In this document: positions 6,691 through 64,000 of the stretch, in pieces | Numbering within the stretch: position 1 is the first letter of the stretch | Layout of the letters: each line of letters opens with the position of its first letter | NCBI GenBank assembly: GCA_964393895.1 | Contig: CAYMWP010000003.1 | Location: forward strand, 18,351-82,350 | Length of the DNA stretch: 64,000 nt | Source of the DNA: an uncultured Anaerolineales bacterium | Lineage (GTDB): Bacteria; Chloroflexota; Anaerolineae; B4-G1 | Direction: 5' to 3' | The notes under the pieces: model-generated | What the model was told of the DNA's origin: nothing | Databases searched by the model: none | What the model saw: the letters and a program-made list of their open reading frames with translations, nothing else | Translations under genes and position numbers: made by a program

Positions 6691-6737
6691 GAAATGGCAT
6701 ACGGCTCAACAGATACGTCGAGTTATTGATCGAGGAA

Positions 6738-11805: not shown

Positions 11806-14800
11806 ATGGTAAAGACTAGCGATAAGCAAAAAACCGAGGTGCAATTGGTCGAAGAGTTGCAAGAGCCGGAGGAGCAGCGCAAGTGGGCCGTAGAGTCCTT
11901 GCAGGCGAGCGAGGAAAAGTATCGCGCGATTCTCGAGAACATTGAGGAAGCCTATTACGAGGTTGACCTGGCTGGCAATTTCACTTTCTTCAACTCTATG
12001 CTGTGCCAGATGCTAGGGTACACGGCCGATGAATTGATGGGCGCGAACTACCGACGTTATACGGACGATGTGTACGCCGATATGGTGTACCGGATTTTCA
12101 ACAAGGTTTACCGCACCGGGGAGCCTACCAGGATATTGGATTGGGAGGTCAACAGTAAGGACGGGGCCAGGAAACTGGTCGAGTCATCCGTGTCGCTGAT
12201 CCGTGACGCTGCGGGCAAGCCCGTCGGGTTCCGTGGTATCGTTCGCGACGTCACCGGGCGCAAGTGGACGGAGGCCGAAATCGTCAAACTCAATCGCGAG
12301 CTGACCACCCTCAATAGGGTTGGTCAGGCCCTCACCTCCGCTCTGGATCTGGAAGAGACGTTGACCCTCATCACCGAGCAAGTGACCAATTTGCTGGGAG
12401 TAGAGGCGACCTCGGTGATCCTTCACGACGAGGTCCAGGATGACTTGTGTTTCGCTGCCGCGTCCGGCAGTGGTGCGGATTTCATACTCAATGCCCGCTT
12501 TGAATTGGGCCAGGGTATCGCCGGCTGGGTCGTACAGCACGGTGAAGCGGCGGTGGTACCCGACGTATCCCGGGACGTGCGTTGGTTTCGTGATTTTGAT
12601 CATAAGAGCGGCTTGGAAACTCGCTCGATCTTGTGTGTTCCCTTGCGAGCCAAAGGACAGATCATTGGCGCTATTGAGGCGGTAAATAAGTGGGATGGCG
12701 ATTTTGACCAGGATGATTTGCGGCTTTTGACCTCACTGGCGGCGCCGGCGGCCACCGCTATCGAAAACGCCCGCTTGTTCGGGCAGTCACAGGCTCGCGC
12801 CGAGGAATTGGCGGTACTGAACGAGTTGGGGCAGGCCCTCACCGCCCACCTCGACGTCGAAGGAGTGCTGGACGAAGCTTACCGGGGTGTCTCGCGCTTG
12901 ATGGATACCACTAATTTTTACGTCGCCCTTTGCGAGCCGGGTGAGGAGGAGGTTACGTTCGCCATAGATGTGCTCGAGGGAGAGGTGCGGAGGTCGCGCG
13001 AAACCCGCAGGGCCGGTCGTGGCCTGACCGAGCACGTCATTCAAACCCGCGAACCCTTGCTCATCGAAGAGGAGCTGCCCGAACGGTTGGAAGAGTTGGG
13101 AATTGCGTTGATTGGACGGATTGCTCTCTCCTGGCTGGGGGTGCCCCTCGTCGTCGGCGACCAGGTGCTAGGCGTGATGGCCGTGCAGAGTTACACCAGG
13201 CCCCGTCTCTACGGCCAGCGCGAGCGAGATTTGCTGGTCTCTGTTGCCAGCCAGGCAGCTATCGCCATTGAGAATGCCCGATCGTACGAGCAGGAACAGG
13301 CCCGCGCCAAAGAACTGGCCGTGCTTAACGAGCTGAGCCAGTCTCTCACCGCCAGCTTGAGCGTGGAGGATGTGTTGGAGGAGGCCTACCGGCAGGCCGC
13401 TCGCCTGGTGGACACGACCAACTTTTACATCGGCCTCTACGACTCGGATAAGGAAGAAGTGGCTATTCCCTTCATCGTCTCCAAGTCGGAGATTGACCGT
13501 CACATCACCGTCGTTCCTGCGGACCAGGGCTTTACCGGCTATATCATCCGCAATCGTACCGCCGTGTTAGTCGAAGAGAACGTGATCGAATGGTTGGAGG
13601 AGAACGGGATTAGCGTGATAGGGGAGCCGGCTCTTTCCTGGCTGGGAGTACCTCTGATCGTCGGCGACCAAGTGCTAGGAGTTATGGCCGTTCAGAGCTA
13701 TATCACCCCCCGCCTCTACGGCGAGCACGACCGCAAGTTGCTGACGGCCATTGCCGGGCCGACGGCTATCGCCATCCAGAACGCCCGGTTGTACGAGCAG
13801 GCGCAGCGCGAAATCGGAGAGCGCAAGCGGGCGGAGGCGGAGGTGCGACGGCGAGCGGAGCAGGCGGCGCTGACCTACAAGGTGGGCCAGCGCGTCAGCG
13901 GCGAACTGGCGTTGGACGAACTGCTATCCGAAATCGTGATTGCTGTGCACGATGCCTTTGATTACTATGGCGTGATGTTGTTGCTCGAGGGAGAAGCAGG
14001 TTTTCTGACCCTGCAATCCGCGGCTGGCGGCTATATTGACGTTCTTCCAACAGATATCGAGATCGCCGTTGGGGAGGGAATGATAGGGCGCGCGGCGGCC
14101 AGTGGTGTGGCCCAAGTCAGCAACGACGTCAGCCAGAACCCCTATTACGTGCGCAACGCGAATGAGGATACAAAATCAGAGTTGGCCGTGCCCATCGAGA
14201 GCGGCGGCAGGGTCATCGGCGTGCTCGATCTCCAGAGTGACGAGCTGGACGCCTTCGACGAGACCGACGTGATGTTGATGGAAACGCTGGCCGATCAAGT
14301 GGGTGTGGTGATCGAGAACGCCCGCCTGTACGAGGAAATCCAGCGTGAGTTGGCCGAGCGCGAGCGGATGGAAGGGGTGTTGCAAGAAACGCACGAGGAG
14401 CTAGAAAAATATACAACCATCCTGGAGCGCCAGACCGCGCGACTGCGAGTGGGGGCCGAGGTGACCCGCAAAGTTTCCGCTATCCTCGATGTGCGACAAC
14501 TTCTCGAAGAGACGGTGCGCCTCATCTCTAATGAATTTGGCTTTTACCACTCGGCAGTCTTCCTGGTGGGCGAGTCCGGCGAGTATGCCATCCTGCGCGC
14601 CGCTTCGTCCGCAGGGGGGCGCCGCATGGTGGAGCGAGGTTACCGGGTGCCGCTTGGTGGGAAAGATGCCGTGGGCTACGTCGCAGCGACAGGTGAACAC
14701 TGCATTGCCCTCGATGTGGGTGAGGGTGCCGCGATGCTTCCCTTTGATCGGGGGGGAGCTGTTGCTTTCAATAACCCCGACTTATCTGACACCCGTTCGG

Positions 14801-17800
14801 AAATGGCGCTGCCCCTGAGGATGCGTGGTCGCACCATCGGCGTGCTGGACATTCAGTCCACTCAAGAGGCTGCTTTCTCCGAGGAGGACGTGGCGGGGTT
14901 TCAGACGCTGGCCGACCAATTGGCCGTTTCCATAGATAACGCCCGCCTGGTAGAGCGCACAGGAGAACAGTTGCGTGAGCAGGAACGTCTCTACGGTGAG
15001 TACAGCGCCTCCGCCTGGGCCGAGTTGCTGTCGCCCGTTCGACCGCTGGGTTACATCTACGATCGCATTGACGTCTCGCCGATATTGGATTCGCCGGCGC
15101 CGCTTGATTTGGCCCCGCAGCGCGTCGAGGCGGAGACGACGGGCGCAATATTGACCATGCCCCTCAAGGTGCGGGGTCGCACGGTCGGCATCCTGGGCGT
15201 AGAAGAGAGCGATGCCGCCCGTGAGTGGTCGTCTGAAGAGGTCGCCATCGTCGAGGCAGTGAGTGACCAGGTAGCCATGGCGCTGGATAGCGCCCGTTTG
15301 TTTGGAGAGGCCCGCACTCGCGCCGAGGAGTTGGCCGTGTTGAACGAGTTGGCTCAATCTCTCACTGCCCGCCTGACCGTGGACGATGTGCTGGAAGAGA
15401 CTTACCAGGGCGTGTCTCGCTTGCTGGATACCACTAACTTTTACATCGGTCTCTACGACCCACAAAAGAACGAAATATCCTTTCCTTTTAACATCACCGA
15501 ATCGGCGGTGGACGAACAGATCGTCGCCATCTCGGCCGATCAGGGGTACGCTGGCTACATAATGCGGAACCGCACGAGCCTGCTCCTCACGGAGGACACC
15601 ATAGAGCAGGTAGTGGAGCGGACGGCCAAGATGGGTATTGAGCATATCGGGCAGTTGGCCCTTTCTTACCTGGGAGTGCCGTTGGTGGTCGGCGACCGGG
15701 TGCTGGGGGTCATGGCGGTTCAAAACTATACCGTGCCCCACGTCTACAGCGAGCACGACCGGAACTTGTTGACGGCCATCGCCAGCCAGGCGGCCATTGC
15801 TCTTCAGAGCGCCCATCTTTTCGAGGAAGCGCAACGGAGGGCGGCTCAGTTGGCGGCGGCTGCCGAGGTCGCCCGGGACGCCACAGCCATCCTGGAAGTG
15901 GACCAGTTGCTAGACGAGACGGTGCACCTCATCTCGGAACAGTTTGGTTTCTACCACGCCGGCGTGTTTTTGCTGGACGAACGGGGCGAGTACGCCGTTC
16001 TGCAAGCGGCCTCTTCCGAGGGCGGGCGCCGCATGTTGGAGCGGGGGCACAGACTGAAGGTCGGCGAGGTTGGCATCGTCGGCTACGCCGCGGCCACGGG
16101 AGAACCTCGCGTCGCTCTGGACGTGGGACAGGATGCCGTGCACTTTGCCCACGACGATCTCCCCGATACCCGTTCGGAGATGGGATTGCCGCTCAAAGTG
16201 CGGGAGAGAGTGATCGGCGTGCTGGACGTTCAATCTGACCAGACGGCCGCTTTCTCCGCTGACGACGTCGCGGCTTTGCAGACGATGGCCGACCAGTTGG
16301 CTATTGCCATTGCCAACGCTCGCTTATTTCAAGAGACCCGCTCCGATGTGTTGCGCCGCGCCCTCATCAACGAGGTGCTCCAGGCCGCTACCGCTTCGCT
16401 GGATCCAGAGGAGTTGCTTCACCAGGCCGGAGAGGTCATCTCCCGGCGACTAGAGTCGCCCACCGCGCTCTTTGTCTGGGAGGCGGAGGATAAAGTGTTC
16501 CGTACGGTCGCCGTCCACGACTCCCAGGCTGCCGACGTCTCGTTACCTGGGGTATTTCAGCAAGTGACTCGCGGGGTAGCCCCGGTTCTCTTTGAGGCGG
16601 CGGAGAGTCGGCGCACTGCCGTTTTGGAGCTGACCTCCGATGCAAGCGGCCCGTTGGTCACTGCGGCCAGGTGGGCGCGGGCGCAATCCATCATTTACGT
16701 TCCTCTGATATCCCGTGATCAGGTACTGGGTTTGCTTGGTATTGGGAAACTCGAGGAGCAGCCTGTCGTGGACGTCGAGTTCACCGAACTCGTGGCCGCC
16801 AACCTGACCGTGGCCGTGGAAAACGCCCGCTTGTACCAGGAGGCAGTGCAAACCGCCGAACGCCTGGCAGAGGTAGACCGGCTCAAGAGCCAATTCCTGG
16901 CTAACATGTCCCACGAACTGCGCACACCGCTCAACTCTATCATTGGTTTCTCGCGGGTCATTCTCAAAGAGATTGATGGCCCGCTTACCGATATGCAGCG
17001 CACTGACCTGCAATCTGTCTACGATAGCGGGCAGCATTTGTTGGGGTTGATCAACGATATCCTGGAAGTGGCCAAGATAGAATCTGGCAGGATGGATTTG
17101 GTCTCGGAAGTGGTGAATTTACAGGATATTATCAGGGGCGTCATGTCAACCGCCATCGCGCTGGTCAAGGACAAGCCCGCCGTCGAATTGCAGCAGTCTG
17201 TTCCCCAAGACCTGCCCACGATTATGGGCGACACGCGGCGTATCCGCCAGGCGATCCTCAATCTCGTCTCGAACGCTGCCAAATTCACCACGGAAGGCTT
17301 TATTCGTGTGGAAGCCGAGGTTGTAGATACCGAGGTGATCGTCTCTGTGGCCGATAGCGGTGTCGGCATCCCGCCAGACAAGATTGATATGATCTTTGAG
17401 CCTTTCACTCAGGCCGACGCATCCACTACCCGCGAGACTGGGGGCACGGGGCTGGGCCTTTCCATCACCAGCAGCTTTGTCGAGATGCACGGCGGTCGTA
17501 TGTGGGTGGAGAGCGAGGTGGGTAAAGGCTCTACATTCTACATGGCATTGCCCATTCATACCCTCTCTTCTATTGAGGAACAAGTGGAGGAGGAACAGCC
17601 AGAGTTAGAGCCTGGACAAAGAGTCGTTCTCTGCGTAGAGGATGACGAAGGAGTCATCACCCTCTTCCGCCGTTACCTGAGCAAGCGGGGCTACAGGGTA
17701 GTCGGTCTCTCCAACAGTATGATGGCGTTGGAACGAGCGCGAGAGTTGCAGCCGTTCGCCATAACGTTGGACGTGATGATGCCCGGCAAGGATGGCTGGC

Positions 17801-18369
17801 AGGTCGTTCAGGAGTTGAAGGCTGATCCTGCGACCAGCGATATTCCCGTTATAATGTGTACCATCGTAGGCGAGGAGGAGCATGGCCTTAGCCTGGGAGC
17901 GGCCGATTACTTGATCAAGCCGATTCTCGAGCAGGACTTGTTGGCTGCGCTGAATCGTCTGGACCGGCAGGATGAGCGACACTTGGTGTTGGTGGTGGAT
18001 GACCTGCCGGAAGATCGAGATCTGTTGAGCCGGATGATCGAGAGCCAAGAGGGATACGAGGTTATGGGGGCCGGCGGCGGCGAGGAGGCCATCGCCATGA
18101 TCCGGCAAACGTTGCCCGATATTATTATTTTGGATCTGATGATGCCAAACGTGGATGGTTTTGCAGTACTCGAGGCGGTCAAGACAGACGAGAACACTCG
18201 CTCTATTCCCATCATCGTTGTAACCGCCAAAGATCTGACCCCAGAGGAGCGCGAGGTCCTGACCGGTGAGGTAGAGTCCCTGCTCCACAAAGGAATCTTT
18301 GACCGGCAAGAGTTACTGGCAGACGTGGCAGGGGCGCTGGAGCGCCTGAGAGGCAAGGTAGGAGACTGA
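11806..18369 (+). CDS. Giant hybrid sensor histidine kinase: PAS - about 9 GAF - HisKA - HATPase_c - REC - REC
   Basis: 2187 aa. Nine GAF-terminal motifs (IENARLF ... VENARLY). H-box FLANMSHELRTPLNSIIGF, G-box GGTGLGLSITSSFVEMHGGRMWVES, and two receiver domains (LDVMMPGKDG and LDLMMPNVDG). Confidence 0.9.
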   Translation: MVKTSDKQKTEVQLVEELQEPEEQRKWAVESLQASEEKYRAILENIEEAYYEVDLAGNFTFFNSMLCQMLGYTADELMGANYRRYTDDVYADMVYRIFNKVYRTGEPTRILDWEVNSKDGARKLVESSVSLIRDAAGKPVGFRGIVRDVTGRKWTEAEIVKLNRELTTLNRVGQALTSALDLEETLTLITEQVTNLLGVEATSVILHDEVQDDLCFAAASGSGADFILNARFELGQGIAGWVVQHGEAAVVPDVSRDVRWFRDFDHKSGLETRSILCVPLRAKGQIIGAIEAVNKWDGDFDQDDLRLLTSLAAPAATAIENARLFGQSQARAEELAVLNELGQALTAHLDVEGVLDEAYRGVSRLMDTTNFYVALCEPGEEEVTFAIDVLEGEVRRSRETRRAGRGLTEHVIQTREPLLIEEELPERLEELGIALIGRIALSWLGVPLVVGDQVLGVMAVQSYTRPRLYGQRERDLLVSVASQAAIAIENARSYEQEQARAKELAVLNELSQSLTASLSVEDVLEEAYRQAARLVDTTNFYIGLYDSDKEEVAIPFIVSKSEIDRHITVVPADQGFTGYIIRNRTAVLVEENVIEWLEENGISVIGEPALSWLGVPLIVGDQVLGVMAVQSYITPRLYGEHDRKLLTAIAGPTAIAIQNARLYEQAQREIGERKRAEAEVRRRAEQAALTYKVGQRVSGELALDELLSEIVIAVHDAFDYYGVMLLLEGEAGFLTLQSAAGGYIDVLPTDIEIAVGEGMIGRAAASGVAQVSNDVSQNPYYVRNANEDTKSELAVPIESGGRVIGVLDLQSDELDAFDETDVMLMETLADQVGVVIENARLYEEIQRELAERERMEGVLQETHEELEKYTTILERQTARLRVGAEVTRKVSAILDVRQLLEETVRLISNEFGFYHSAVFLVGESGEYAILRAASSAGGRRMVERGYRVPLGGKDAVGYVAATGEHCIALDVGEGAAMLPFDRGGAVAFNNPDLSDTRSEMALPLRMRGRTIGVLDIQSTQEAAFSEEDVAGFQTLADQLAVSIDNARLVERTGEQLREQERLYGEYSASAWAELLSPVRPLGYIYDRIDVSPILDSPAPLDLAPQRVEAETTGAILTMPLKVRGRTVGILGVEESDAAREWSSEEVAIVEAVSDQVAMALDSARLFGEARTRAEELAVLNELAQSLTARLTVDDVLEETYQGVSRLLDTTNFYIGLYDPQKNEISFPFNITESAVDEQIVAISADQGYAGYIMRNRTSLLLTEDTIEQVVERTAKMGIEHIGQLALSYLGVPLVVGDRVLGVMAVQNYTVPHVYSEHDRNLLTAIASQAAIALQSAHLFEEAQRRAAQLAAAAEVARDATAILEVDQLLDETVHLISEQFGFYHAGVFLLDERGEYAVLQAASSEGGRRMLERGHRLKVGEVGIVGYAAATGEPRVALDVGQDAVHFAHDDLPDTRSEMGLPLKVRERVIGVLDVQSDQTAAFSADDVAALQTMADQLAIAIANARLFQETRSDVLRRALINEVLQAATASLDPEELLHQAGEVISRRLESPTALFVWEAEDKVFRTVAVHDSQAADVSLPGVFQQVTRGVAPVLFEAAESRRTAVLELTSDASGPLVTAARWARAQSIIYVPLISRDQVLGLLGIGKLEEQPVVDVEFTELVAANLTVAVENARLYQEAVQTAERLAEVDRLKSQFLANMSHELRTPLNSIIGFSRVILKEIDGPLTDMQRTDLQSVYDSGQHLLGLINDILEVAKIESGRMDLVSEVVNLQDIIRGVMSTAIALVKDKPAVELQQSVPQDLPTIMGDTRRIRQAILNLVSNAAKFTTEGFIRVEAEVVDTEVIVSVADSGVGIPPDKIDMIFEPFTQADASTTRETGGTGLGLSITSSFVEMHGGRMWVESEVGKGSTFYMALPIHTLSSIEEQVEEEQPELEPGQRVVLCVEDDEGVITLFRRYLSKRGYRVVGLSNSMMALERARELQPFAITLDVMMPGKDGWQVVQELKADPATSDIPVIMCTIVGEEEHGLSLGAADYLIKPILEQDLLAALNRLDRQDERHLVLVVDDLPEDRDLLSRMIESQEGYEVMGAGGGEEAIAMIRQTLPDIIILDLMMPNVDGFAVLEAVKTDENTRSIPIIVVTAKDLTPEEREVLTGEVESLLHKGIFDRQELLADVAGALERLRGKVGD

Positions 18370-56146: not shown

Positions 56147-57277
56147 ATGATGGAACTCGAGTTCCAAGAATACCGCGCCCGCAAGATTCTCAACGTCCAC
56201 AAGCACGTGGACGGCCCCTGGTTCTGGGGCAAGTACACGGCGCATCCCTACGTCGGTTGCCGCAGCGGGTGCGAGTTTTGTTACTCGCGGGGCAGCCGTT
56301 ACCTGGGACGGCGCGATCCAGATACCTTTGACATGCTGATCGGGGTCAAGGTCAACGCGGTGGAATTGCTGCGCGGCGAGCTTTTTGGCCGGGAGGACGA
56401 GATCGTCTCCGTAGGCGATTGGCAGCAGCCGGCCGAGAGCCGCTACCGACTCTCGCGCGGTATGTTGGAGGTGGTGCGCGACCTGGGCTTTCCTCTGTTC
56501 ATCGTCGAACGCTCACCGCTCCTCACCCGCGATCTGGACTTGCTCGTGGAAATCAACCGCCAATCCTGGGTGGGCGTGCTCTTTAGCATCAGCAACGTGG
56601 ACCCGGCCCTGAAGCGAGCGTTCGAGCCGCGCAGCCCAGGCGTCAAGCGCCGCCTGCGGGCAATGGAAAAGCTGGCGAGCGCCGGTATCCTGGTCGGCAG
56701 CTCGATGATGCCCGTAATTCCCTTCGTGGGCGACGACGAAAAACACCTGGAGGACCTGATCCGCGCCACCAAAGATCACGGCGGCTCGTGCGTGCTGGCC
56801 GGCGGGCTGACGATGGACGGCGTCCAGGCCCAACGTAGCCTGGTGGCGGCCCGGCGGCTCGACCCGGCGCTGGAACCCCGCTGGCGGGAGTTGTACGGCT
56901 GGGAGGAGGGCGGGAAGCCGAACTATAGCCCGCCGCAGGGGTACAGCGCCTGGCTGGGGCTGCTGGTGCGCGAGTTGTGCGCCCGCCACGGCCTGCTGGA
57001 TCGTATGCCGCGCTACGTGAGGCCAGGGCCGTTGGCGGTCAACAAACGGGTCGCCGAGTGGCTGTTCCTCAAGACCTACGACCTGGAATTGGAGCAGGCG
57101 AAAGAATATCGCATCTGGGCCTATCGCAAGGCAGCCTGGACGGTGGACGAGTGGCCGCAGAGCGTGGCCGAGATATACCAGGCCCAAGGCGAGGCAGGCT
57201 TGCGGGAACTGCCGGGCATCGGCAAGAGTTTGGCGGCGCAGATTATCGAGACCCTAAAGGTTTCAGAAAACCCTTAG
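56147..57277 (+). CDS. SplB-like radical SAM DNA repair photolyase fused to a PolX-type helix-hairpin-helix tail
   Basis: The radical SAM motif is HPYVGCRSGCEFCYSR. The C-terminus YRIWAYRKAAWTVDEW...GLRELPGIGKSLAAQIIE resembles the Pol X N-terminal HhH module. Confidence 0.8.
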   Translation: MMELEFQEYRARKILNVHKHVDGPWFWGKYTAHPYVGCRSGCEFCYSRGSRYLGRRDPDTFDMLIGVKVNAVELLRGELFGREDEIVSVGDWQQPAESRYRLSRGMLEVVRDLGFPLFIVERSPLLTRDLDLLVEINRQSWVGVLFSISNVDPALKRAFEPRSPGVKRRLRAMEKLASAGILVGSSMMPVIPFVGDDEKHLEDLIRATKDHGGSCVLAGGLTMDGVQAQRSLVAARRLDPALEPRWRELYGWEEGGKPNYSPPQGYSAWLGLLVRELCARHGLLDRMPRYVRPGPLAVNKRVAEWLFLKTYDLELEQAKEYRIWAYRKAAWTVDEWPQSVAEIYQAQGEAGLRELPGIGKSLAAQIIETLKVSENP

Positions 57278-57281
57278 GGTC
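57250..57281. repeat. Palindromic element copy (one mismatch)
   Basis: GACCCTAAAGGTTTCAGAAAACCCTTAGGGTC spans the stop of the radical SAM gene. Confidence 0.9.
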
Positions 57282-57301
57282 TGGGAAGTTAAAGGAGCGA
57301 C

Positions 57302-58108
57302 ATGCCCGAACTGCCAGAGATAACGGCTCGCGCCCGCGAGATGCAAGGGTTGGTGGGCAAGAGGATCGCCCGTATTGAGGTGCTGCAACCCAAGTGCCTC
57401 AACGTCCCGCCGGAGACGTTCGTCGAGGCGCTGACCGGCGCGCGCGTGCTCGCCGTGACCCATCGTGGCAAGTGGATTTTCGTCGAGACGACCCAGGGGT
57501 GGTTGTTGCTCAATCTGGGGATGGGGGGCGAGCTTTTGCTCGTCACGCGCGATGCGCTTCCGGAGAAACGTCGCCTCGTTTTTGACTTTGACGATGGCGC
57601 CTGCCTGACCGTCAATTTCTGGTGGTTTGGCTATGCTCACCACGTTCCTGCTGGCGAGTTGGATAGCCACGCCATGACGGCCAAGCTCGGCCCAAACGCG
57701 CTCGACTTGACGGCCAACGATCTGTGGGATCTGCTCCAAGGCCGGCGCGGGCGGATCAAATCGTACCTGTTGGATCAATCTCACGTTGCCGGTATCGGCA
57801 ACGCCTACATCCACGACATTCTCTTCATGGCGCGGCTGCATCCCTTACGCAAGGCAAACACGCTGACCGATGCTGAGGTGGATGCGCTGGCTGAGGCGAT
57901 TCGGGCCGGGCTTGAGCCTAGCATCGAGAAGGGTGGGGCCTTCTACGAGATGAACCTCTACGGGCAGAAGGGCGGCTTTGCGATGGATGACATCCTGGTT
58001 GGCTACAAGGAAGGCAAGCCCTGCCCGGTCTGCGGCGCGCCGATTGAAAAGATCAAGACCGGGAGCAACAGCAGTTTCGTCTGCCCTCGTTGCCAACCCC
58101 TGGAATGA
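57302..58108 (+). CDS. mutM: Formamidopyrimidine-DNA glycosylase (Fpg/Nei family)
   Basis: N-terminal MPELPEI, an H2TH region (LLDQSHVAGIGNAYIHDILF), and the zinc finger CPVCGAPI...FVCPRCQ. Confidence 0.9.
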   Translation: MPELPEITARAREMQGLVGKRIARIEVLQPKCLNVPPETFVEALTGARVLAVTHRGKWIFVETTQGWLLLNLGMGGELLLVTRDALPEKRRLVFDFDDGACLTVNFWWFGYAHHVPAGELDSHAMTAKLGPNALDLTANDLWDLLQGRRGRIKSYLLDQSHVAGIGNAYIHDILFMARLHPLRKANTLTDAEVDALAEAIRAGLEPSIEKGGAFYEMNLYGQKGGFAMDDILVGYKEGKPCPVCGAPIEKIKTGSNSSFVCPRCQPLE

Positions 58109-58242
58109 GGGTGGGCGGTAGCGACCGACTCAGAATCCGAGTTCAAACCGGTTGGCGCCAGTGATGACAGAGCACTGACCCCGGCCAGAGCCGCGCTGCG
58201 CCATCCTCGTGGCGACGGGAACGGCCGCTCGGCGCCCCACAT

Positions 58243-58271
58243 TTGCCCTTCTCCACCCATCATGCTAAAAT
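58243..58271 (+). promoter_or_regulatory. Candidate sigma-70-type promoter for hsdM
   Basis: TTGCCC (58243-58248), a 17-nt spacer ending in TGC, then TAAAAT (58266-58271), which gives an extended -10 TGCTAAAAT. It lies about 80 nt upstream of the hsdM start. Confidence 0.45.
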
Positions 58272-58349
58272 CCTTACACAAGACAAAACGCCTCGCGTCA
58301 AGATGCGGCCGGCTTTGTTTTACTTGCATTGCTCACAAGGAGCCATTCA

Positions 58350-59918
58350 TTGCCCGCCAACAACAACGACCTCGAAAAACGTCTGTGGGACGCCGCCGAC
58401 GAGCTGCGCGCCAACTCGCGCCTGCGCGCCGCCGAGTACTCGGTCCCCGTCCTGGGGCTGATATTTTTGCGCTACGCCGACCACCGCTTTGCCGCAGCCG
58501 GTGCGGCGATCCAGGCCGAGCGGGCCACGGCTACCGAGGCGGGCGGCCGGCAGCGCCCGGTCTCGCCGCTGGACTACCAGGCCCGCGGCGTGCTCTACCT
58601 GCCCCAGGAAGCCCGCTTCGCCCACCTGGTGGCGCTGCCCGAGGGGAGCGACATCGGCCGCGCCATCGGCGACGCGATGAAGGCGGTTGAGACCCACAAC
58701 CCCGACCTCAAGGATGTGCTGCCCAAGACCTACAATCGCTTCGAGAACGCCACCCTGCGCGAACTGCTGCGCATCTTTAACGGTATCTCGATGGACGTCC
58801 AGGGGGACGTCTTTGGCAAGATTTACGAGTACTTTTTGAGCAACTTTGCCAGAGCCGAGGGCCAGCGCGGCGGCGAGTTCTTTACCCCCACCGCCCTCGT
58901 GCGGTTGATCGTCGAGATCATCGAGCCTTTCCACGGCTACATCTTCGACCCGGCCTGCGGGTCGGGCGGCATGTTCGTGCAGAGCGCGCGCTTTGTGCAG
59001 CGCCACCAGGGGCAGACGACCGACGTCTCCATCTACGGCCAGGAGCGGGTGGCCGGCACGGTGCGGCTGTGCAAGATGAACCTGGCCGTCCACGGTTTGG
59101 CCGGCGATGTGCGCCAGGGCAACACCTACTACGAGGACATCCACCAATCCCGAGGGCGCTTTGATTTCGTGATGGCGAATCCCCCCTTCAACGTCAACCG
59201 GGTGGACAAGGACCGCCTCAAGGACAGCCCCCGCTTCCCCTTTGGCCTGCCGCGGGTGGACAACGCCAACTACCTTTGGATCCAGCTCTTTTACAGCGCG
59301 TTGAACGAGATGGGCCGGGCGGGGTTTGTGATGGCCAACTCGGCCAGCGACGCCCGCGGCTCGGAGTTAGAGATCCGCCGGCAGTTGATCCAGAGCGGCG
59401 CGGTGGACGTGATGGTGGCCGTAGGCTCGAATTTCTTTTACACGGTGACCCTGCCCTGCACGCTGTGGTTCCTCGACCGGGGCAAGCCGGAGGAGCGGCG
59501 GGACAAGGTGCTGTTCATCGATGCGCGCCACGTCTATACCCAAGTGGACCGCGCCCACCGCGAGTTCACGCCCGCGCAGATCGAGTTCCTGGCCAACATT
59601 GTGCGGTTGTACCGCGGGCGCGAGGCAGAGACGGACCAGGGCAGCGCGGAGCTGATGGCCGAGCACTTTCCGGAGGGCGCGTACCGGGACGTGGCGGGCT
59701 TGTGCAAGGCGGCCACCCTGGACGAGATCGAGGGCCAGGGCTGGAGCCTCAACCCCGGCCGGTACGTGGGCGTGGCCGAGCGGGAGGTGGACCCCGACTT
59801 TGACTTTGCCGAGCAACTGGAGACGCTGCACGAGGAGTTGGAGGTGCTCAACGCCGAGGCGCACGAGTTGGAGGAGCGGATCGCGGAGAATGTGGCGCAG
59901 TTGTTGAACAGCCTGTGA
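58350..59918 (+). CDS. hsdM: Type I restriction-modification system methyltransferase subunit HsdM
   Basis: The N-terminus [19 protein letters not shown] is HsdM_N-like. Also [22 protein letters not shown] and NPPFN. TTG 58350 after AAGGAG is the likely start; the ORF track starts at 58329. Confidence 0.9.
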
Positions 59919-59935
59919 TAACTGGAGCAAGAATA

Positions 59936-60751
59936 ATGGTCAACTATGACTATACAGAGAAGCAGGGCCAGTACCTGGCCTTTATCTACAACTATACCGT
60001 GATCCACGGCCAGCCCCCATCGGAAGCGGATATGCAGCGCTTTTTCCGCGTGACGCCCCCTTCCGTCCACCAGATGGTGCTCAAGCTGGAGGAAAAGGGG
60101 TTCATCAGCCGGGTGCCGAGGAAAGCCCGCACCATCCAGGTGCTGGTGGAACCCGAACAACTCCCAATACTCAGGAGGCAGGAAATACCCAAAAAGACAG
60201 TTTCAAAAGCGCCCATCTACCAGATCAAGGTCACGCTGGAAGAAAGCAAGCCGCCCATCTGGCGGCGACTGTTGGTGCCCGGCGACGTCACGCTGGAAAA
60301 GCTACACTACATCATCCAGGTGGCGATGGGCTGGACCAACTCTCACCTGCACCAGTTCATCGTTGATGGCATCTACTTTGGCGAGCCAAATCCCGACTAT
60401 GGCCCCACTATGCATGACGAACGGCGCATCCGGCTAAATGGGGTCACGACTGAGGAAGGGTTCAAGTTCACGTACGAGTATGACTTTGGCGATGGCTGGA
60501 TGCACACGCTGCTGGTGGAAAAGATTCTGGAGCCAGAGCCGGACCAGCAATACCCGGTGTGCGTCAAGGGCAAGCGCGCCTGCCCGCCGGAGGACGTGGG
60601 CGGCGTGTGGGGCTACGAAGAGTTCCTGGAGGCCATCCGGGACCCCGACCACGCCGAGCACCAGGTGTACCTGGAGTGGATCGGCGGCGAGTTCGACCCG
60701 GAGGAGTTTGACCTGGAGGAGACGAACGAGATTCTGCTGGACCTGCGGTGA
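59936..60751 (+). CDS. LexA-like winged-HTH fused to a pRiA4b ORF-3-like (PRiA4_ORF3) domain protein
   Basis: N-terminus TEKQGQYLAFIYNYTVIHGQPPSEADMQRFFRVTPPSVHQMVLKLEEKGFISR. C-terminus IYQIKVTLEESKPPIWRRLLVP...MGWTNSHLHQF...YEYDFGDGWMHTLLVE...CPPEDVGGVWGYEEF. Confidence 0.8.
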   Translation: MVNYDYTEKQGQYLAFIYNYTVIHGQPPSEADMQRFFRVTPPSVHQMVLKLEEKGFISRVPRKARTIQVLVEPEQLPILRRQEIPKKTVSKAPIYQIKVTLEESKPPIWRRLLVPGDVTLEKLHYIIQVAMGWTNSHLHQFIVDGIYFGEPNPDYGPTMHDERRIRLNGVTTEEGFKFTYEYDFGDGWMHTLLVEKILEPEPDQQYPVCVKGKRACPPEDVGGVWGYEEFLEAIRDPDHAEHQVYLEWIGGEFDPEEFDLEETNEILLDLR

Positions 60752-60765
60752 GGTCCGGTGCGCCT

Positions 60766-60834
60766 AACGCCGAGGCGCACGAGCTGGAGAAACGGATCGG
60801 GAAGAATGTGATTGAAATTCTGGAGGCAAACTAG
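60766..60834 (+). pseudogene. Orphan duplicate of the hsdM 3' end (23 codons including the stop)
   Basis: It encodes [22 protein letters not shown], against [22 protein letters not shown] at 59850-59918. By hand alignment, 40 of the first 45 nt are identical. It ends 3 nt before the hsdS ATG. Confidence 0.65.
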
Positions 60835-60837
60835 TAG

Positions 60838-62097
60838 ATGTTTCCAAATTTACCGCCTACTTGGACCACAAAGAAAATTGGCGAACTATGTGATGTGAGC
60901 CGTGGAGCATCCCCTAGGCCAATACATGACCAACGCTATTTCGAAGAGGGAACAATCCCCTGGATAAAAATTGCAGATGCAACAAAGTCTGGAAAATACT
61001 TGTATGAAACCAAGCAGTATGTGAACGAATTTGGGGCGTCATTTAGTAAACTATTGCCACCAGGAACAATTCTGGTTGCAGCAAGTGGTACTTTGGGTTA
61101 TACACAAATTCTCGGGGTCGAAGGCTGCGCTCATGATGGGTGGCTAATACTCCAGAACCTTCGCGAATTCGACCGAGACTACGCTTACTACACTCTTCAA
61201 TGGATGGAACGGCATTTTTACAACAGTGCTTATGGTGCTGCTATTCAGAACATCAATACAACCATTCTTAAAGAAACTGAAATACCATATCCCCCCCTCC
61301 CCACCCAGCGCAAGATCGCCGCCGTGCTCTCCGCCTACGACGACCTGATCGAGAACAACACCCGCCGCATCGCCGTGCTGGAGGAGATGGCGCGGCTGCT
61401 GTACCGTGAGTGGTTCGTCCGCTTCCGCTTCCCCGGCCATGAGGACGTGGCGATGGTCGATTCGGAGCTGGGGCCGGTGCCGCAGGGGTGGGAGGTGAAG
61501 CCGCTGGGTGACTTTGGCGAGGTCATCACTGGCAAGACGCCGAGCAAGAAAGTAGCGGAGTATTACGACGACTACATGCCATTTATCAAGATCCCTGATA
61601 TGCATGGCAAGATATTCTGCATCCAAACCGCTGACAATCTCTCGGAAGCAGGTGCAGATTCACAGAAGCAAAAAACTCTGCCCCCAGACAGCTTATGTGT
61701 AAGCTGTATCGGTTCTGCTGGCTTGGTCACGATTACCACGGTTCCTTCTCAAACCAATCAGCAGATTAACTCGATTATTTTGAAAAATAAAGTGGATCGT
61801 GAGTTTCTCTATTTTGCACTTGTAGGGCTAAAAGAGACCATCAACCAATATGGTGCGACAGGCGCTACAATGGTCAATCTTAGCAGAGGTAAGTTTGTTG
61901 GCTTGCAGGTCATCTATCCTGACCAGGAAACCCTGGTTGCTTTCCACGGAATGACTTTTCCTCTTTTTGAACAGATCAGGGTAGCACAACTCAAGAACGA
62001 GGTTCTCCGTCGCACCCGCGATTTGCTGCTGCCGCGCCTCGTCTCCGGCCAGGTGGACATATCAGAGCTGGAGATTGACGCAGGACAAGTGGGATAA
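60838..62097 (+). CDS. hsdS: Type I restriction-modification specificity subunit HsdS
   Basis: Two TRD halves are separated by a central conserved region (LPPLPTQRKIAAVLSAYDDLIENNTRRIAVLEEMARLLYREWFVRFRFPG). The distal conserved region is LRRTRDLLLPRLVSGQVD. Confidence 0.9.
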   Translation: MFPNLPPTWTTKKIGELCDVSRGASPRPIHDQRYFEEGTIPWIKIADATKSGKYLYETKQYVNEFGASFSKLLPPGTILVAASGTLGYTQILGVEGCAHDGWLILQNLREFDRDYAYYTLQWMERHFYNSAYGAAIQNINTTILKETEIPYPPLPTQRKIAAVLSAYDDLIENNTRRIAVLEEMARLLYREWFVRFRFPGHEDVAMVDSELGPVPQGWEVKPLGDFGEVITGKTPSKKVAEYYDDYMPFIKIPDMHGKIFCIQTADNLSEAGADSQKQKTLPPDSLCVSCIGSAGLVTITTVPSQTNQQINSIILKNKVDREFLYFALVGLKETINQYGATGATMVNLSRGKFVGLQVIYPDQETLVAFHGMTFPLFEQIRVAQLKNEVLRRTRDLLLPRLVSGQVDISELEIDAGQVG

Positions 62098-62160
62098 TAG
62101 TCACGATTGTTCACTCCCTACTATCGCGGACTACAAAACAATTGATTCAGGGAATATGCA

Positions 62161-63201
62161 ATGAATATCAACACAACACTGCTTGACGAGACCAGAGGTC
62201 AAACTGACGCAGAGACTTTGGAATCGCAAGATGATCTCCTTGAGAAATACGATTGTTGGCGCAATCAAATCGAGCAATTTATTACCTATGAAGGGCCATT
62301 TCTTGATAGACAAAAAAAAGCCATCAATATCGTCGAAGAGATAATGATGCGTCATGGCAAGGCAAAAATCCTGAAATGTGTGACGGAGCTAGCACGAGTA
62401 GAATACGGCATCCGTGATATAGAACCTTGGGTCCGTGACCATGTAGTCCACGCTCTGCTCAGCTTTGTGCTGGGTATTTTCCTCAACGAGAGATTCCTCA
62501 GGCCCAAAAATGCAGTTGGTGTTTTTCAGTGGAAACTTGCTGGTTTGCTGCATGACGTCGGCTACCCAGTTCAGATTGCTAAAGATATTCTAGAGTCCTT
62601 TGGAGCCAAGATGAACGAGATAAAGCAACTCTTGGATGTACCTGCTCCAGATATCGGATTTAGGATAGTACCAGTGGGTCTAGCGCGTCTGGCAAATGGA
62701 GCCGACAGTTTGAACTTGATCCAGGATTGTCTTGAACAATGGGATCTAGACATCGATGCTAAGCGCGAATATTCGATGATGATGGAAACTGGCCAAGTCT
62801 GCCACGGTATGATTAGCGCGCTCTCAGTTTTGTATTTGCTCGATCTCATGTACGCAGCGCACAATTCTGCCAGAGCGTATACCGATGCACTGGACGAAAA
62901 TACAGGCATCGATTGGAGCCAAGATTTCTTCGATCAAGATATCGTACCTGCCTGCTCTGCCATCTTCACCCATAACCTGCCTGAGGAATGCTTTACAAAA
63001 GCCAAGATCAGACGGGACGTAGCACCTCTGCCTTTTCTCCTTAGATTGGCAGATTGCCTACAGGATTGGGAAAGGCCAAAGAAGAAGAATCCTAAAGGAA
63101 CACCCGCCACTCGATACAACATCGAGGTTACTCCCAATGGCTTGATAGTGTCAAGTAGTCTTGACATTTGGTGGCAGAGCCATCTGTACTCTCACCTGTA
63201 G
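62161..63201 (+). CDS. HD-domain-like protein of unknown function
   Basis: Low-GC 346 aa ORF. H...HD-type spacing: DHVVHALLSF, LAGLLHDVGYP, CHGMISA, LLRLADCLQDWER. The 3' end overlaps the transposase gene by 51 nt. Confidence 0.5.
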   Translation: MNINTTLLDETRGQTDAETLESQDDLLEKYDCWRNQIEQFITYEGPFLDRQKKAINIVEEIMMRHGKAKILKCVTELARVEYGIRDIEPWVRDHVVHALLSFVLGIFLNERFLRPKNAVGVFQWKLAGLLHDVGYPVQIAKDILESFGAKMNEIKQLLDVPAPDIGFRIVPVGLARLANGADSLNLIQDCLEQWDLDIDAKREYSMMMETGQVCHGMISALSVLYLLDLMYAAHNSARAYTDALDENTGIDWSQDFFDQDIVPACSAIFTHNLPEECFTKAKIRRDVAPLPFLLRLADCLQDWERPKKKNPKGTPATRYNIEVTPNGLIVSSSLDIWWQSHLYSHL

Positions 63202-64000
63202 TTTTACAATCGAATATTCGGGGCAGTCCGGCTGTGGCAAATGCCACAGGGTGGCCCACTGTGCAGAATCAAAGCGACGTACGAGATCCAAGCCAATCAG
63301 ATTTCGTACTCCCGGTGTGCTCCATCTCACTCCCACATCTGTCCGACGGTTGATCTCGCGCATCTGCCTTTCCAACGGACTGGTTGAACTGATAGCGCGG
63401 GGTTCCATTCTTCGATCATCGAAGAACATACCGTCTGGCTGCTCGCGGTAAGTGAAGACGTAGGGAGCAGCGGCTTCCAAGTAACCCGCAGCATTGGTGA
63501 GTCCTTCTTGATGCAGTTGGGTGATCAAGCTCTCCATCTCGGCTCGGGAACGTGGCACAGTGTACCTTGGGTGATAGATGATCTTGCCCAATCGTCCCAT
63601 CCACACCCTGGCTTGCATCTTGCTCAACCCATCTTCCCACAGAGGCCAGTAGAGTTGAGAAACTACGTGCCACACGCCACGTTGCTTATGTGTATCTGGA
63701 AACATGCTCTCCAGCCAATTGACAAGCCCTTCATCGCCATCAAACAGGATGCGAGCAGGTTCAGTTTCAGCCAAGGCCTGACCAGTTTTGGACCAGCTTT
63801 CGCCTACCCCAAAGCACACGGGGGCGACCTTCAAGCGCGGACGTCCTCCTATCCAGCACCGGCCTTGGATACTCAACCCCAGGTTGAGGGAGCAGCCCCG
63901 TCGTTTATCACCAGATCGCACCTTGGTGGAATCTAGGAGGAGCGGATGGCCGTTGGTTTGTTCGGTTGTAAAGGCAACCTCCTGGCCCTTGTCTTGGACC
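63151..64000 (-). mobile_element. DDE transposase gene (ISLre2/ISKra4-like pattern), 5' end outside window
   Basis: The frame stays open to the window edge (…LLLDSTKVRSGDKRRG…). Motifs are FDGDEGLVNWLESMFP...WHVVSQL and SPLERQMREINRRTDVGVRWSTPGVRNLI. The family assignment is tentative. Confidence 0.7.

Follow-up and report, generated by a model that had tools for sequence, protein, structure and literature searches.

The gene that lies between hsdM and hsdS in this Anaerolineales genome is probably cargo that entered the junction of these two genes long ago and has since been inherited within a widespread type I restriction-modification (R-M) family, where the relic of a duplicated hsdM 3' end has been reused and hsdS has later been exchanged. 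The whole stretch of DNA analysed, 64,000 nucleotides long, is called the window below, and its features lie on the forward (+) strand unless stated otherwise. The first-pass annotation had proposed either that the gene inserted into the junction or that a foreign hsdM-tail-hsdS cassette recombined in behind it. Both scenarios appear to be borne out, with an old gene insertion first and an hsdS exchange later. While the structural part of that interpretation holds, its suggestion that the inserted protein acts as an R-M controller or a defence component is unproven, and several of our results argue against a dedicated controller.

By its HsdM, HsdS and HsdR genes, the locus is predicted to encode a type I R-M system. 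The methyltransferase subunit gene hsdM (58350-59918; 522 aa), identified by gene calling on a longer copy of the contig and by Pfam and PADLOC, encodes HsdM_N (PF12161, 3.4e-19) and N6_Mtase (PF02384, 6.1e-87) domains and matches the PADLOC MTase_I model at 7e-232. Its start is most likely the TTG at 58350, which follows AAGGAG, and not 58329. A consensus scan recovered the promoter-like site annotated upstream (58243-58271; TTGCCC, 17 nt, TAAAAT, with TG), and found no terminator-like site on the + strand between hsdM and hsdS. The hsdS gene (60838-62097) contains two Methylase_S stretches and is a mosaic by segment GC and by BLASTN of its segments against related loci, comprising TRD1 (60838-61285, GC 0.43), a central conserved region (61286-61500, GC 0.68), TRD2 (61501-61985, GC 0.46) and a C-terminal conserved region delimited by the segment analysis (61986-62097). 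In the gap between hsdS and hsdR lies a second cargo gene (62161-63201; 346 aa) of low GC, with an HD-type motif and no Pfam family. Between this gene and hsdR, an ISH6-family transposase gene (63151-64000, - strand; 323 bits) is cut by the window end. The hsdR gene itself lies about 0.7 kb past that end, after the transposase, in the longer contig copy (L001), where it encodes a 1070-aa protein with HSDR_N, ResIII and T1RH-like_C domains.

The last codons of hsdM occur twice. Copy 1 (59850-59918), whose tail is conserved in 120 HsdM homologues, is read as the functional hsdM 3' end; copy 2 occupies 60766-60834. The two agree at 46 of 69 nucleotides overall and, as had been claimed, at 40 of the first 45 (59850-59894 against 60766-60810). 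The match is significant: a BLASTN search of the window with copy 1 as query returned 88.9% identity over these 45 nt (E = 3e-9), while the next-best unrelated 45-mer in the 64 kb reaches only 26 matches. The left edge of the similarity is sharp. On its right, copy 2 divides into a 5' part of GC 0.60 that we regard as an hsdM-tail relic (60766-60810) and a diverged 3' part of GC 0.375 (60811-60837). The latter holds a GGAGG (60822-60826), the Shine-Dalgarno sequence of hsdS, inside the relic and 11 nt before the ATG; copy 1 has no GGAGG at the place where other family members carry one. Copy 2 ends in a TAG (60832-60834) and the hsdS ATG follows 3 nt on, at 60838, again as annotated. A possible 28-codon relic ORF, read from the sequence (60748-60834), starts with a GTG that shares bases with the stop codon TGA of the inserted gene (GTGA). 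Continued selection on the first 45 nt of the relic is unproven, since they are no more conserved than functional hsdM tails.

Between the copies lies, as first described, a single gene (59936-60751; 271 aa), preceded by a 17-nt spacer (59919-59935) with a GGAG that would be its ribosome-binding site and is conserved in three related loci (L013, L007 and L092). Pfam, an AlphaFold model (pLDDT 87), a structural match to PDB entry 2I1S and dN/dS all bear on the gene, which encodes a LexA-type winged helix-turn-helix (HTH; 59951-60133), followed after a low-confidence linker by a PRiA4_ORF3/MM3350-like domain (approximately 60215-60721). Pfam places LexA_DNA_bind (PF01726) at residues 6-66 (E = 3e-8; 33.8 bits against a cut-off of 23.7) and PRiA4_ORF3 (PF07929) at residues 94-262 (E = 5.8e-73; 244.7 bits against a curated cut-off of 26.6). 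The HTH also matches PDB 3K2Z in a profile search of PDB sequences (E = 1.6e-7). Pfam detects no Peptidase_S24 in the protein, so that the self-cleaving C-terminal domain of LexA is absent. NCBIfam recognises the LexA N-terminal domain only (36 bits against a cut-off of 111 for the lexA model, residues 6-73), the sole PHROGs match is a family without assigned function, on the HTH, and PADLOC gives no match.

The PRiA4 domain resembles 2I1S closely, both by fold (Foldseek E = 7e-18, TM 0.83-0.85, rmsd 2.4 Å) and by profile against PDB sequences (E = 4e-53). A further profile search of PDB sequences, at E values up to 10, returned 2I1S alone. With the full-length model, the fold search found only 2I1S and HTH regulators; with the domain alone, SNAPC3 came next after 2I1S (E = 8e-4, TM 0.47), along with weak ubiquitin-like matches, and a viral library gave two uncharacterised giant-virus proteins. 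H124, H137, H139 and C209 are invariant, the enterobacterial transposon copies included. A reading of the protein as a fourth component of the system, discussed below, takes the PRiA4 domain as SNAPC3-like with a conserved His3-Cys site. Values of dN/dS of 0.15-0.3 in both domains place the gene under purifying selection and show that the protein is maintained. It is most likely a DNA-binding accessory factor or regulator, possibly of one-component type with the PRiA4 domain as its sensing or partner-binding part, and in our view it is not a dedicated restriction-enzyme subunit.

The same layout, with a PRiA4 gene between hsdM and hsdS, occurs in no fewer than 13 distinct loci that belong to the same hsdM/hsdR family and come mostly from Anaerolineae MAGs or metagenome contigs (the window, L007, L012, L013/L105, L092, L097, L098, L101, L102, L104, L109, L141, L177 and L189). 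The expected association with R-M elsewhere is thereby confirmed, and three contigs also have the PRiA4 gene after one that encodes a restriction-type endonuclease domain. Relative to the window, HsdM in the layout loci is 72-93% and HsdR 60-88% identical, and HsdS only 30-60%. Across ten loci, pairwise identities correlate between HsdM and HsdR (r = 0.85), less between HsdM and PRiA4 (0.37) and hardly between HsdM and HsdS (approximately 0). Since the layout recurs in at least 13 loci with very different hsdS genes, the insertion and the duplication appear to predate this genome.

Most layout loci keep an hsdM-tail relic whose left boundary falls at about the same codons (E-V-L-N). These relics form a decay series, from intact through frameshifted (L097) and truncated (L098, L101, L177) to fused with the hsdS frame (L104) and absent (L141), and in the other layout loci a purine-rich motif stands just before the hsdS start in the relic. 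In L092, an older hsdS 5' fragment is retained alongside a fresh hsdM tail and hsdS. In cargo-free members of the family, there is an overlap of 4-8 nt between hsdM and hsdS, and the ribosome-binding site of hsdS lies within the final hsdM codons; the relatives L172 and L175 have such an overlap. Presence of the PRiA4 gene varies among close HsdM relatives, and L172 lacks it with an HsdM 93% identical to that of the window. In a PRiA4 tree (no bootstrap), type I copies are interleaved with copies from other contexts, so that one insertion with purely vertical inheritance does not suffice and either cassette exchange or repeated insertion has to be invoked. Given that the layout recurs in many related uncultured bacteria, the PRiA4 insertion appears to be old, tolerated and located at a recombination hot spot.

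Evidence for the later exchange comes from composition. GC within the relic falls from 0.60 to 0.375 at about position 60810, exactly where identity to the resident hsdM tail stops. Both TRDs of the window hsdS are low in GC and match none of approximately 180 related loci by BLASTN of segments, while the central conserved region is 94-95% identical to relatives at the DNA level. Together, these features suggest that foreign hsdS sequence recombined in via the relic, and the 3' third of the relic and both TRDs seem to derive from a low-GC donor.

The duplicated tail appears to belong to the site and not to the PRiA4 gene, because other cargo at the junction is also flanked by hsdM-tail copies. 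In L190 a PDDEXK_3 gene sits between hsdM and hsdS with its own hsdM-tail relic and a different left boundary, and in L092 a RAYT/REP insertion has displaced the old hsdM tail end; REP arrays stand between the cargo stop and hsdS in L092, L013 and L177. An insertion signature of the PRiA4 gene itself was ruled out, as no flanking duplication was found in five non-type-I contexts. No integrase, transposase or terminal repeats belonging to the PRiA4 cargo were found. Direct repeats of the kind that delimit an attL/attR-type integrative element are present, but the 916-nt unit is a single gene without a recombinase domain. A tie to the nearest transposase was likewise ruled out: that gene, 2.4 kb off on the opposite strand, is of the ISH6 family and not of the PRiA4-carrying ISAzba1/ISKra4 type.

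We are thus able to propose how such a junction might accommodate cargo. For an insertion to be tolerated, hsdM would have to retain its C-terminal tail and hsdS its upstream start region, so that those insertions that survive would be the ones bracketed by two copies of the hsdM 3' end. Copy 1 would be the working end of hsdM, and copy 2 a relic that serves as the 5' leader of hsdS and supplies its Shine-Dalgarno sequence. The same relic may act as the left homology arm for hsdS or TRD exchange, and in this genome low-GC DNA would have taken the place of its 3' third and of TRD1 in such an exchange. The cargo would be a self-contained LexA-type winged HTH plus PRiA4_ORF3 gene from a mobile-element-linked family, co-transcribed with hsdM and hsdS. 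We infer the co-transcription, and the roles of the relic as translation start region and recombination arm, from this arrangement.

Other explanations bear on the relic and on the role of the protein. The intact frame of copy 2 might reflect ongoing translation of a 28-codon relay ORF, which would restore the ancestral coupling into hsdS. Consistent with this, a GTGA/ATGA overlap with the cargo stop and a frame open to or over the hsdS start are found in the window, L007, L102 and L104; nonetheless, the equivalent ORF is broken or absent in L012 (no start codon), L097 (early stop and frameshift) and the truncated relics of L098, L101 and L177, and the REP arrays intervene in L092, L013 and L177. 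The frameshifted and truncated relics rule out a conserved mini-gene as a general feature. Recent origin from a functional donor tail accounts equally well for the intact frame, and we consider a translated relay improbable. A dedicated transcriptional controller of the operon, with its HTH on an operator at the hsdM promoter and its PRiA4 domain sensing a signal such as phage entry or methylation state, also seems unlikely to us; it would be the counterpart of C proteins, RptR or BrxR/CapW in other systems. A winged HTH of the LexA/MarR type would suit this role, as would the position of a gene under purifying selection inside the hsdM-hsdS unit of many loci, and repressors linked to type I R-M and other defence systems have been reported (PMC12255303). 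However, the operon upstream regions share no sequence (260 nt upstream of hsdM, aligned for seven loci, are not homologous). The palindromic HTH targets suggested by the first-pass annotation did not emerge either, as no inverted-repeat half-site in nine upstream regions of HTH-bearing genes exceeded shuffled controls. Furthermore, L013 has its HTH deleted, L012, L177 and L141 have none, and in L098 a stop codon separates it from the rest of the protein, yet the R-M genes remain; the HTH is lost, split or disrupted outside R-M loci too, near-identical versions of the whole gene are found in non-R-M contexts, and PRiA4 copies 69-82% identical adjoin NUDIX, HSP20, CHAT or HEAT/SEC-C genes without R-M. 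We also doubt that the HTH-PRiA4_ORF3 protein is a working fourth component, that is, a one-component factor whose PRiA4 domain senses a DNA, metal or protein signal and tunes the hsdM-hsdS arm against restriction. If true, this would provide the first function for PF07929, a family carried by thousands of plasmids and ISKpn19-type transposons.

A somewhat unlikely alternative is that the gene is a selfish or neutral passenger, mobile-element-linked and with a function of its own, hitch-hiking in an often-exchanged operon to no effect on R-M. Units of the ISKpn19/ISEc51 type routinely carry a PRiA4_ORF3/MM3350-like gene (PF07929), placed ahead of a serine recombinase and then a transposase gene (PMC3942029), and the domain is found on 2915 plasmid records. 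The interleaved tree, the variable presence among close HsdM relatives and the unrelated cargo at the junction are all in keeping with such a passenger. So are the neighbours of 78 species-representative homologues, which show no R-M enrichment and no dominant partner (DUF2293 accounts for 4 and ResIII for 2 of 139 neighbours), in a rough survey whose home-made gene caller mis-called some high-GC genes. Against this, the low dN/dS indicates a maintained protein, the closest relatives repeatedly lie in R-M operons, including directly after the endonuclease-domain gene, and the gene here has no transposase or recombinase to go with it, the IS close by being the unrelated ISH6 element. A role in defence as an accessory or back-up component, like that of PrrC, DarTG or Abi genes embedded in R-M operons, is very unlikely; such a component might for instance sense anti-restriction proteins. 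Gaps in type I loci of the family do carry GmrSD (L012, L097), Abi_C (L175) and DUF3800 (L177, L190) as cargo, with a faint NACHT match in L172, and the endonuclease-domain gene precedes the PRiA4 gene in the three contigs noted above. But the protein has no recognisable effector domain and no PADLOC match, defence cargo lies mostly in the hsdS-hsdR and not the hsdM-hsdS gap, and the family at large is nearly absent from phages and is not enriched near defence genes in the 78-homologue survey.

An old insertion with a reused relic and a later hsdS exchange remains our preferred account of the locus. Cargo genes in type I R-M operons are known, and in the literature searched we did not find the hsdM-hsdS junction described as a cargo slot. 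The rule proposed for this slot is that the overlapping hsdM end and hsdS start region must be duplicated, with the relic then doubling as leader and recombination arm. The locus also puts a very widespread, uncharacterised domain into a defined operon context, with methylation, restriction and hsdS expression as read-outs. Should the protein turn out to have no effect on R-M, the locus would remain a clear case from nature in which translational coupling has shaped the tolerance of insertions.

Compared with known systems, the locus resembles type I operons that carry embedded cargo, such as the E. coli prr locus with its cargo gene PrrC. DarTG2 is a cargo gene of a type I R-M system in an EPEC island (PMC12255303). 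As in these systems, the extra gene here is part of the hsd operon and shares its orientation, and across this family the gap between hsdS and hsdR holds variable cargo (GmrSD, Abi_C, an HD protein). In contrast, the insertion described here is at the hsdM-hsdS junction and not beside hsdR, is bracketed by a duplicated hsdM 3' end and encodes no recognisable toxin or nuclease. Our literature search found no paper placing a PRiA4_ORF3 gene between hsdM and hsdS, and none of those mentioning the family gives a function. The C-terminal 170 residues make the protein a clear member of the PRiA4_ORF3/MM3350-like family (245 bits; TM 0.83 to 2I1S, the only solved member), with a LexA-type HTH at its N-terminus. 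PRiA4_ORF3 genes are also passengers of ISAzba1-group transposons, and one homologue bears the NCBI name 'IS1096 element passenger TnpR family protein'. Relative to ISKpn19/ISAzba1-type transposons with PRiA4_ORF3 (comparison loci L187 and L188), the gene described here is chromosomal and lies within an R-M operon, with neither a serine recombinase nor a Mutator-like or ISKra4/ISAzba1-type transposase next to it. In human SNAPc the DNA-binding subunit is SNAPC3 (SNAP50), whose architecture rests on a ubiquitin-like domain and includes a Cys/His zinc site (PMC9758055). SNAPC3 is the closest fold to the PRiA4 domain after 2I1S, a likeness that is modest and structural only.

Regulators of R-M and defence loci offer a further comparison. 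LexA repressor shares the N-terminal winged-helix domain, but its S24 peptidase domain has no counterpart here. C proteins are small, with an Xre/lambda-cI-type HTH, and are encoded just upstream of the endonuclease gene, acting at C-box operators; our protein has 271 residues and a winged HTH, its gene stands between hsdM and hsdS, and no shared palindrome was found upstream. In BrxR and CapW, encoded at the head of defence operons, a winged HTH is followed by WYL and WCX domains. Like BrxR, the inserted protein is an HTH protein in a defence locus and pairs a winged HTH with a second domain, as one-component regulators do, although Pfam finds no WYL in it, its gene is internal to the operon and its match to BrxR (7QFZ) has E of only ~0.08-0.1 and probability 0.2. 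RptR, a small repressor, has its gene upstream of hsdM and binds promoter repeats of TAGCTA; the inserted gene takes another position and no TAGCTA occurs in 57001-63300, a distinction drawn from the description of RptR. From C proteins, BrxR, CapW and RptR alike, the inserted gene differs in lying away from the operon head, in lacking a detected operator and in an HTH that is dispensable in several loci. Finally, hsdS in type I families diversifies by recombination in conserved regions (TRD shuffling). The window conforms to this pattern, with an hsdS mosaic of high-GC conserved regions and apparently foreign low-GC TRDs and, among the related loci, HsdS identity uncoupled from that of HsdM and HsdR. 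Where it departs from the pattern is in the left crossover, which here seems to lie inside the non-coding hsdM relic rather than in hsdM itself.

The forward-strand operon begins with hsdM (58350-59918; HsdM_N and N6_Mtase domains), which has a TTG start preceded by AAGGAG and, in a sequence scan, a promoter-like site upstream (58243-58271). A 17-nt spacer containing GGAG leads to the inserted gene (59936-60751, 271 aa), and an 86-nt gap separates this from hsdS (60838-62097, two Methylase_S stretches). Between hsdM and hsdS, the same scan detected no forward-strand terminator-like site. On L001, a longer copy of the contig, hsdR (1070 aa) and a DUF7662 gene are read just beyond the window end, past a reverse-strand ISH6-family transposase gene (63151-64000, complete at L001 13216-14568; NCBIfam, 323 bits). 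This transposase gene stands between hsdM/cargo/hsdS and hsdR, and overlaps by 51 nt the end of a forward-strand 346-aa gene (62161-63201) that follows hsdS.

The 346-aa gene has a low GC content (0.46) and an HD-type motif (…LLHDVGYP…), with no match in Pfam, PADLOC, NCBIfam or PHROGs. Approximately 210 homologues of 345-350 aa occur across bacteria and archaea, including Citrifermentans, Methanobacterium, Bathyarchaeia and Thorarchaeota, some labelled 'HD domain-containing protein'. The gene probably represents a second, uncharacterised cargo or defence gene. Elsewhere, positions 1-50000 include ORFs of 2187 aa (11806-18369) and 1333 aa (7768-11769).

The first-pass annotation described a duplicated hsdM 3' end flanking the inserted gene, and the alignment bears this out. 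Positions 59850-59894, in the working hsdM end (copy 1, 59850-59918), match 60766-60810, in its repeat before hsdS (copy 2, 60766-60834), at 40 of 45 nt; the copies lie 916 nt apart and the repeat scores E = 3e-9 by BLASTN against the whole window, where the next best 45-mer reaches 26/45. The last 24 nt of the copies share 6 positions and are unrelated as DNA, yet both encode an HsdM-like tail. Copy 2 ends 3 nt before the hsdS ATG.

Loci for comparison were gathered from contigs encoding the cargo protein and from scans of species-representative genomes and metagenomes, and were searched with the HsdM, HsdS and HsdR of the window as tblastn queries. The HTH plus PRiA4 architecture is shared by thousands of protein relatives, and within the same R-M family hsdM is separated from hsdS by a PRiA4 gene in L007, L012, L013/L105, L092, L097, L098, L101, L102, L104, L109 and L141. 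Relative to the window, the PRiA4-bearing loci are 72-93% identical in HsdM and 60-88% in HsdR, but only 30-60% in HsdS. Five HsdM relatives were also sampled regardless of PRiA4 presence: two, L172 (93% HsdM identity) and L175, have a direct hsdM/hsdS overlap, two (L177 and L189) add further examples of the PRiA4-at-junction layout, and L190 carries a PDDEXK_3 gene instead. Contigs of matching length in the HsdM and PRiA4 homologue tables hint, no more than suggestively, at further hsdM + PRiA4 pairs.

Wherever enough of a locus is available, the hsdM-tail remnant before hsdS, hereafter the relic, has its left end near the same codons (E-V-L-N). Its reading frame is intact in the window, L007, L012, L013, L092 and L102, frameshifted in L097, shortened in L098 and L101 (to 'VLDAE') and in L177 (to 12 residues), joined in frame to hsdS in L104, and lost in L141; judged from these sequences, this is a decay series of a pseudogene fragment. 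Every version nevertheless keeps a purine-rich Shine-Dalgarno motif directly before the hsdS start, which in the window is GGAGG (60822-60826) and arises from the tail's 'LE' codons. The 21-residue tail is conserved in 120 HsdM homologues. Because this motif is kept, because the same tail codons directly precede the overlapping hsdS start in cargo-free loci, and because the working tail of hsdM in the window (…LLNSL) has lost it, the relic is likely to be the native translation start region of hsdS. A possible 28-codon ORF, whose GTG overlaps the cargo TGA, could carry translation from cargo into hsdS; it is present in four loci and broken or missing in the others, and we therefore do not take it as a conserved feature.

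Base composition along the operon is uneven, with GC falling from 0.66 in hsdM to 0.60 in the first 45 nt of the relic and 0.375 in its last 24 nt, and then alternating within hsdS between TRD1 (0.43), the central conserved region (0.68), TRD2 (0.46) and the C-terminal conserved region (0.58). The central region shares 94-95% DNA identity with L092, L007 and L172, whereas the target-recognition domains (TRDs) match nothing among approximately 180 other loci compared. Across 10 loci, pairwise identities of HsdM correlate with those of HsdR (r = 0.85), less with PRiA4 (0.37) and not with HsdS (about 0). In L092 the PRiA4 gene is directly followed by an older hsdS 5' fragment, three 125-nt REP-like repeats, a fresh tail relic and a different hsdS. 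The GC breaks, the contrast between TRDs and central region, the uncoupled HsdS identity and the double remnants in L092 together argue that hsdS has been replaced repeatedly, with the window's left crossover probably inside the relic at about 60810. The two origins proposed at first, gene insertion or recombination of an hsdM-tail-hsdS cassette, thus both appear to have occurred, the one reflected in a recurrent layout at one boundary and the other in the GC break and mosaic hsdS; that structural interpretation was essentially right.

Other elements occupy the same junction. In L190, the PDDEXK_3 gene has a relic of its own after it (RELEERIAANVIQLLEAE, then stop), with a different left boundary. 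The hsdM tail of L092 has been interrupted by three 136-nt repeats and an IS200-like RAYT gene; hsdM has acquired a new end (…LLSGQ, then stop), and the old one (RIAENVGQLLNSL, then stop) has been displaced and now immediately precedes the PRiA4 gene, along with the spacer found in the window. L013 holds several hsdM-tail copies amid REP-like repeats beside a RAYT gene. No flanking duplication was found around PRiA4 genes in five contexts outside type I loci. The duplication is a property of the site rather than of the gene. Because the hsdM 3' end and hsdS start region overlap, only insertions that duplicate this stretch would be tolerated, and those surviving would have kept both genes working. 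One route to the duplication may have been illegitimate joining while recombination was anchored in hsdM, which is highly conserved.

Several further features of these loci deserve mention. The L190 insert (6552-7230; PDDEXK_3 gene of 141 aa, HsdM 74% identical) has near-identical TTGCGTGAGGTCTC-type repeats on both sides, with the relic following, and resembles a small mobile cassette. IS200-like Y1 transposase (RAYT-type) genes with tandem 125-136-nt GC-rich REP-like repeats (L092 5016-5927 and 6911-7271, L013 5850-7600, L177 8190-8470) have invaded both the hsdM/PRiA4 and PRiA4/hsdS junctions, with extra hsdM-tail copies among them. In L007 (45-360), a MITE-like insert of ~300 nt with internal inverted repeats at the hsdM end changes the HsdM C-terminus to …LLNSKRSFIFPTTKG…. 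In L012 (5136-5963), hsdM is separated from a PRiA4-only gene by an extra 275-aa ORF that matches no family; the LTSPQERLAEFL at the C-terminus of this ORF is similar to the unusual end of HsdM homologue P0164 (…LTSTQERLADFL), hinting that a deletion fused the two. A divergent hsdM-tail-like fragment (L043 5290-5436), sharing 44% identity with the tail in the window, precedes a PRiA4-only gene by 560 nt on a Phototrophicaceae chromosome, adjoining a TIR-like gene and IS debris, with no hsdM nearby. The hsdS-hsdR gap of the family is a second cargo slot (L012 8025-9806, L097 3884-5533, L175 8760-9434, L172 8836-13548), holding GmrSD type IV enzymes, Abi_C, DUF3800, or a large protein with a faint NACHT match plus a radical-SAM gene.

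The inserted protein combines a LexA-type winged helix (residues 6-66; PF01726, 3e-8; 3K2Z, E = 1.6e-7) with a PRiA4_ORF3 domain (residues 94-262; 5.8e-73), and domain profile searches found no S24 peptidase domain. AlphaFold models are confident (pLDDT 87 and 86) around a disordered linker. The sole solved relative is 2I1S (MM3350; TM 0.83), beyond which a profile search of PDB sequences returned nothing at E up to 10; the next structural match is SNAPC3 (E = 8e-4, TM 0.47), a human SNAPc subunit with a ubiquitin-like domain that binds zinc and contacts DNA (PMC9758055). H124, H137, H139 and C209 are invariant, even in transposon copies at 30% identity, which would fit a metal site. Against nine homologues, dN/dS is 0.15-0.3 in both domains. 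The HTH carries an in-frame deletion in L013, is cut off by a linker stop codon in L098 and is broken in L184 and L185, and the PRiA4 domain stands alone in L012, L177 and L141. In L098 (576-1385) the in-frame TGA leaves an 83-aa HTH ORF and a PRiA4 ORF with a possible ATG restart two codons on, and each domain may act as a protein in its own right.

Close full-length relatives (69-83% identical) also occur outside hsdM-hsdS junctions: directly after and overlapping a gene with a C-terminal restriction-type endonuclease domain (PF19778; L010, L011, L095), beside or fused to HEAT/SEC-C/DUF1186 proteins (L093, L094, L106), 3' of a CHAT protein (L180), and in a variable island adjoining gltX (L008, L182, L185). 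In that island, intact or broken HTH-PRiA4 genes sit by two gltX-type (tRNA-synt_1c) genes of related genomes, with differing small genes (NUDIX, a DUF433/DUF5615 toxin-antitoxin pair, a 1145-aa P-loop protein). More distant members occur in 2915 plasmid records, and homologues in only 4 of 50,697 phage records. In enterobacteria PRiA4 is the first gene of ISKpn19/ISEc51 units, followed by a serine recombinase and an ISKra4-like transposase, in agreement with Guérillot et al. 2014 (PMC3942029). Among 78 species-representative homologues the neighbouring genes are heterogeneous, and a neighbour-joining tree of the domain, without support values, interleaves type I copies with other contexts.

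The searchable literature assigns no function to the PRiA4_ORF3 family. A dedicated R-M controller, suggested earlier, is unsupported because no operator common to the operon upstream regions was found and the HTH proves dispensable and the gene portable; a real regulatory role of the protein in R-M is unlikely. A defence effector is likewise unsupported, as the protein has no effector domain and no PADLOC match; accessory defence is improbable. That the gene is a pure passenger is less likely than not. What remains is a maintained, self-contained putative DNA-binding accessory protein, with predicted co-expression with the methyltransferase arm.

Through the hsdM-hsdS locus, an uncharacterised and very widespread domain gains a testable setting. 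Cargo in type I operons is a known theme; the main additions here are that the PRiA4 layout is old and common within one R-M family, that the relic appears, from its sequence, to serve as both hsdS leader and recombination arm, and that hsdM-tail duplications mark the hsdM-hsdS junction as a general slot for cargo.
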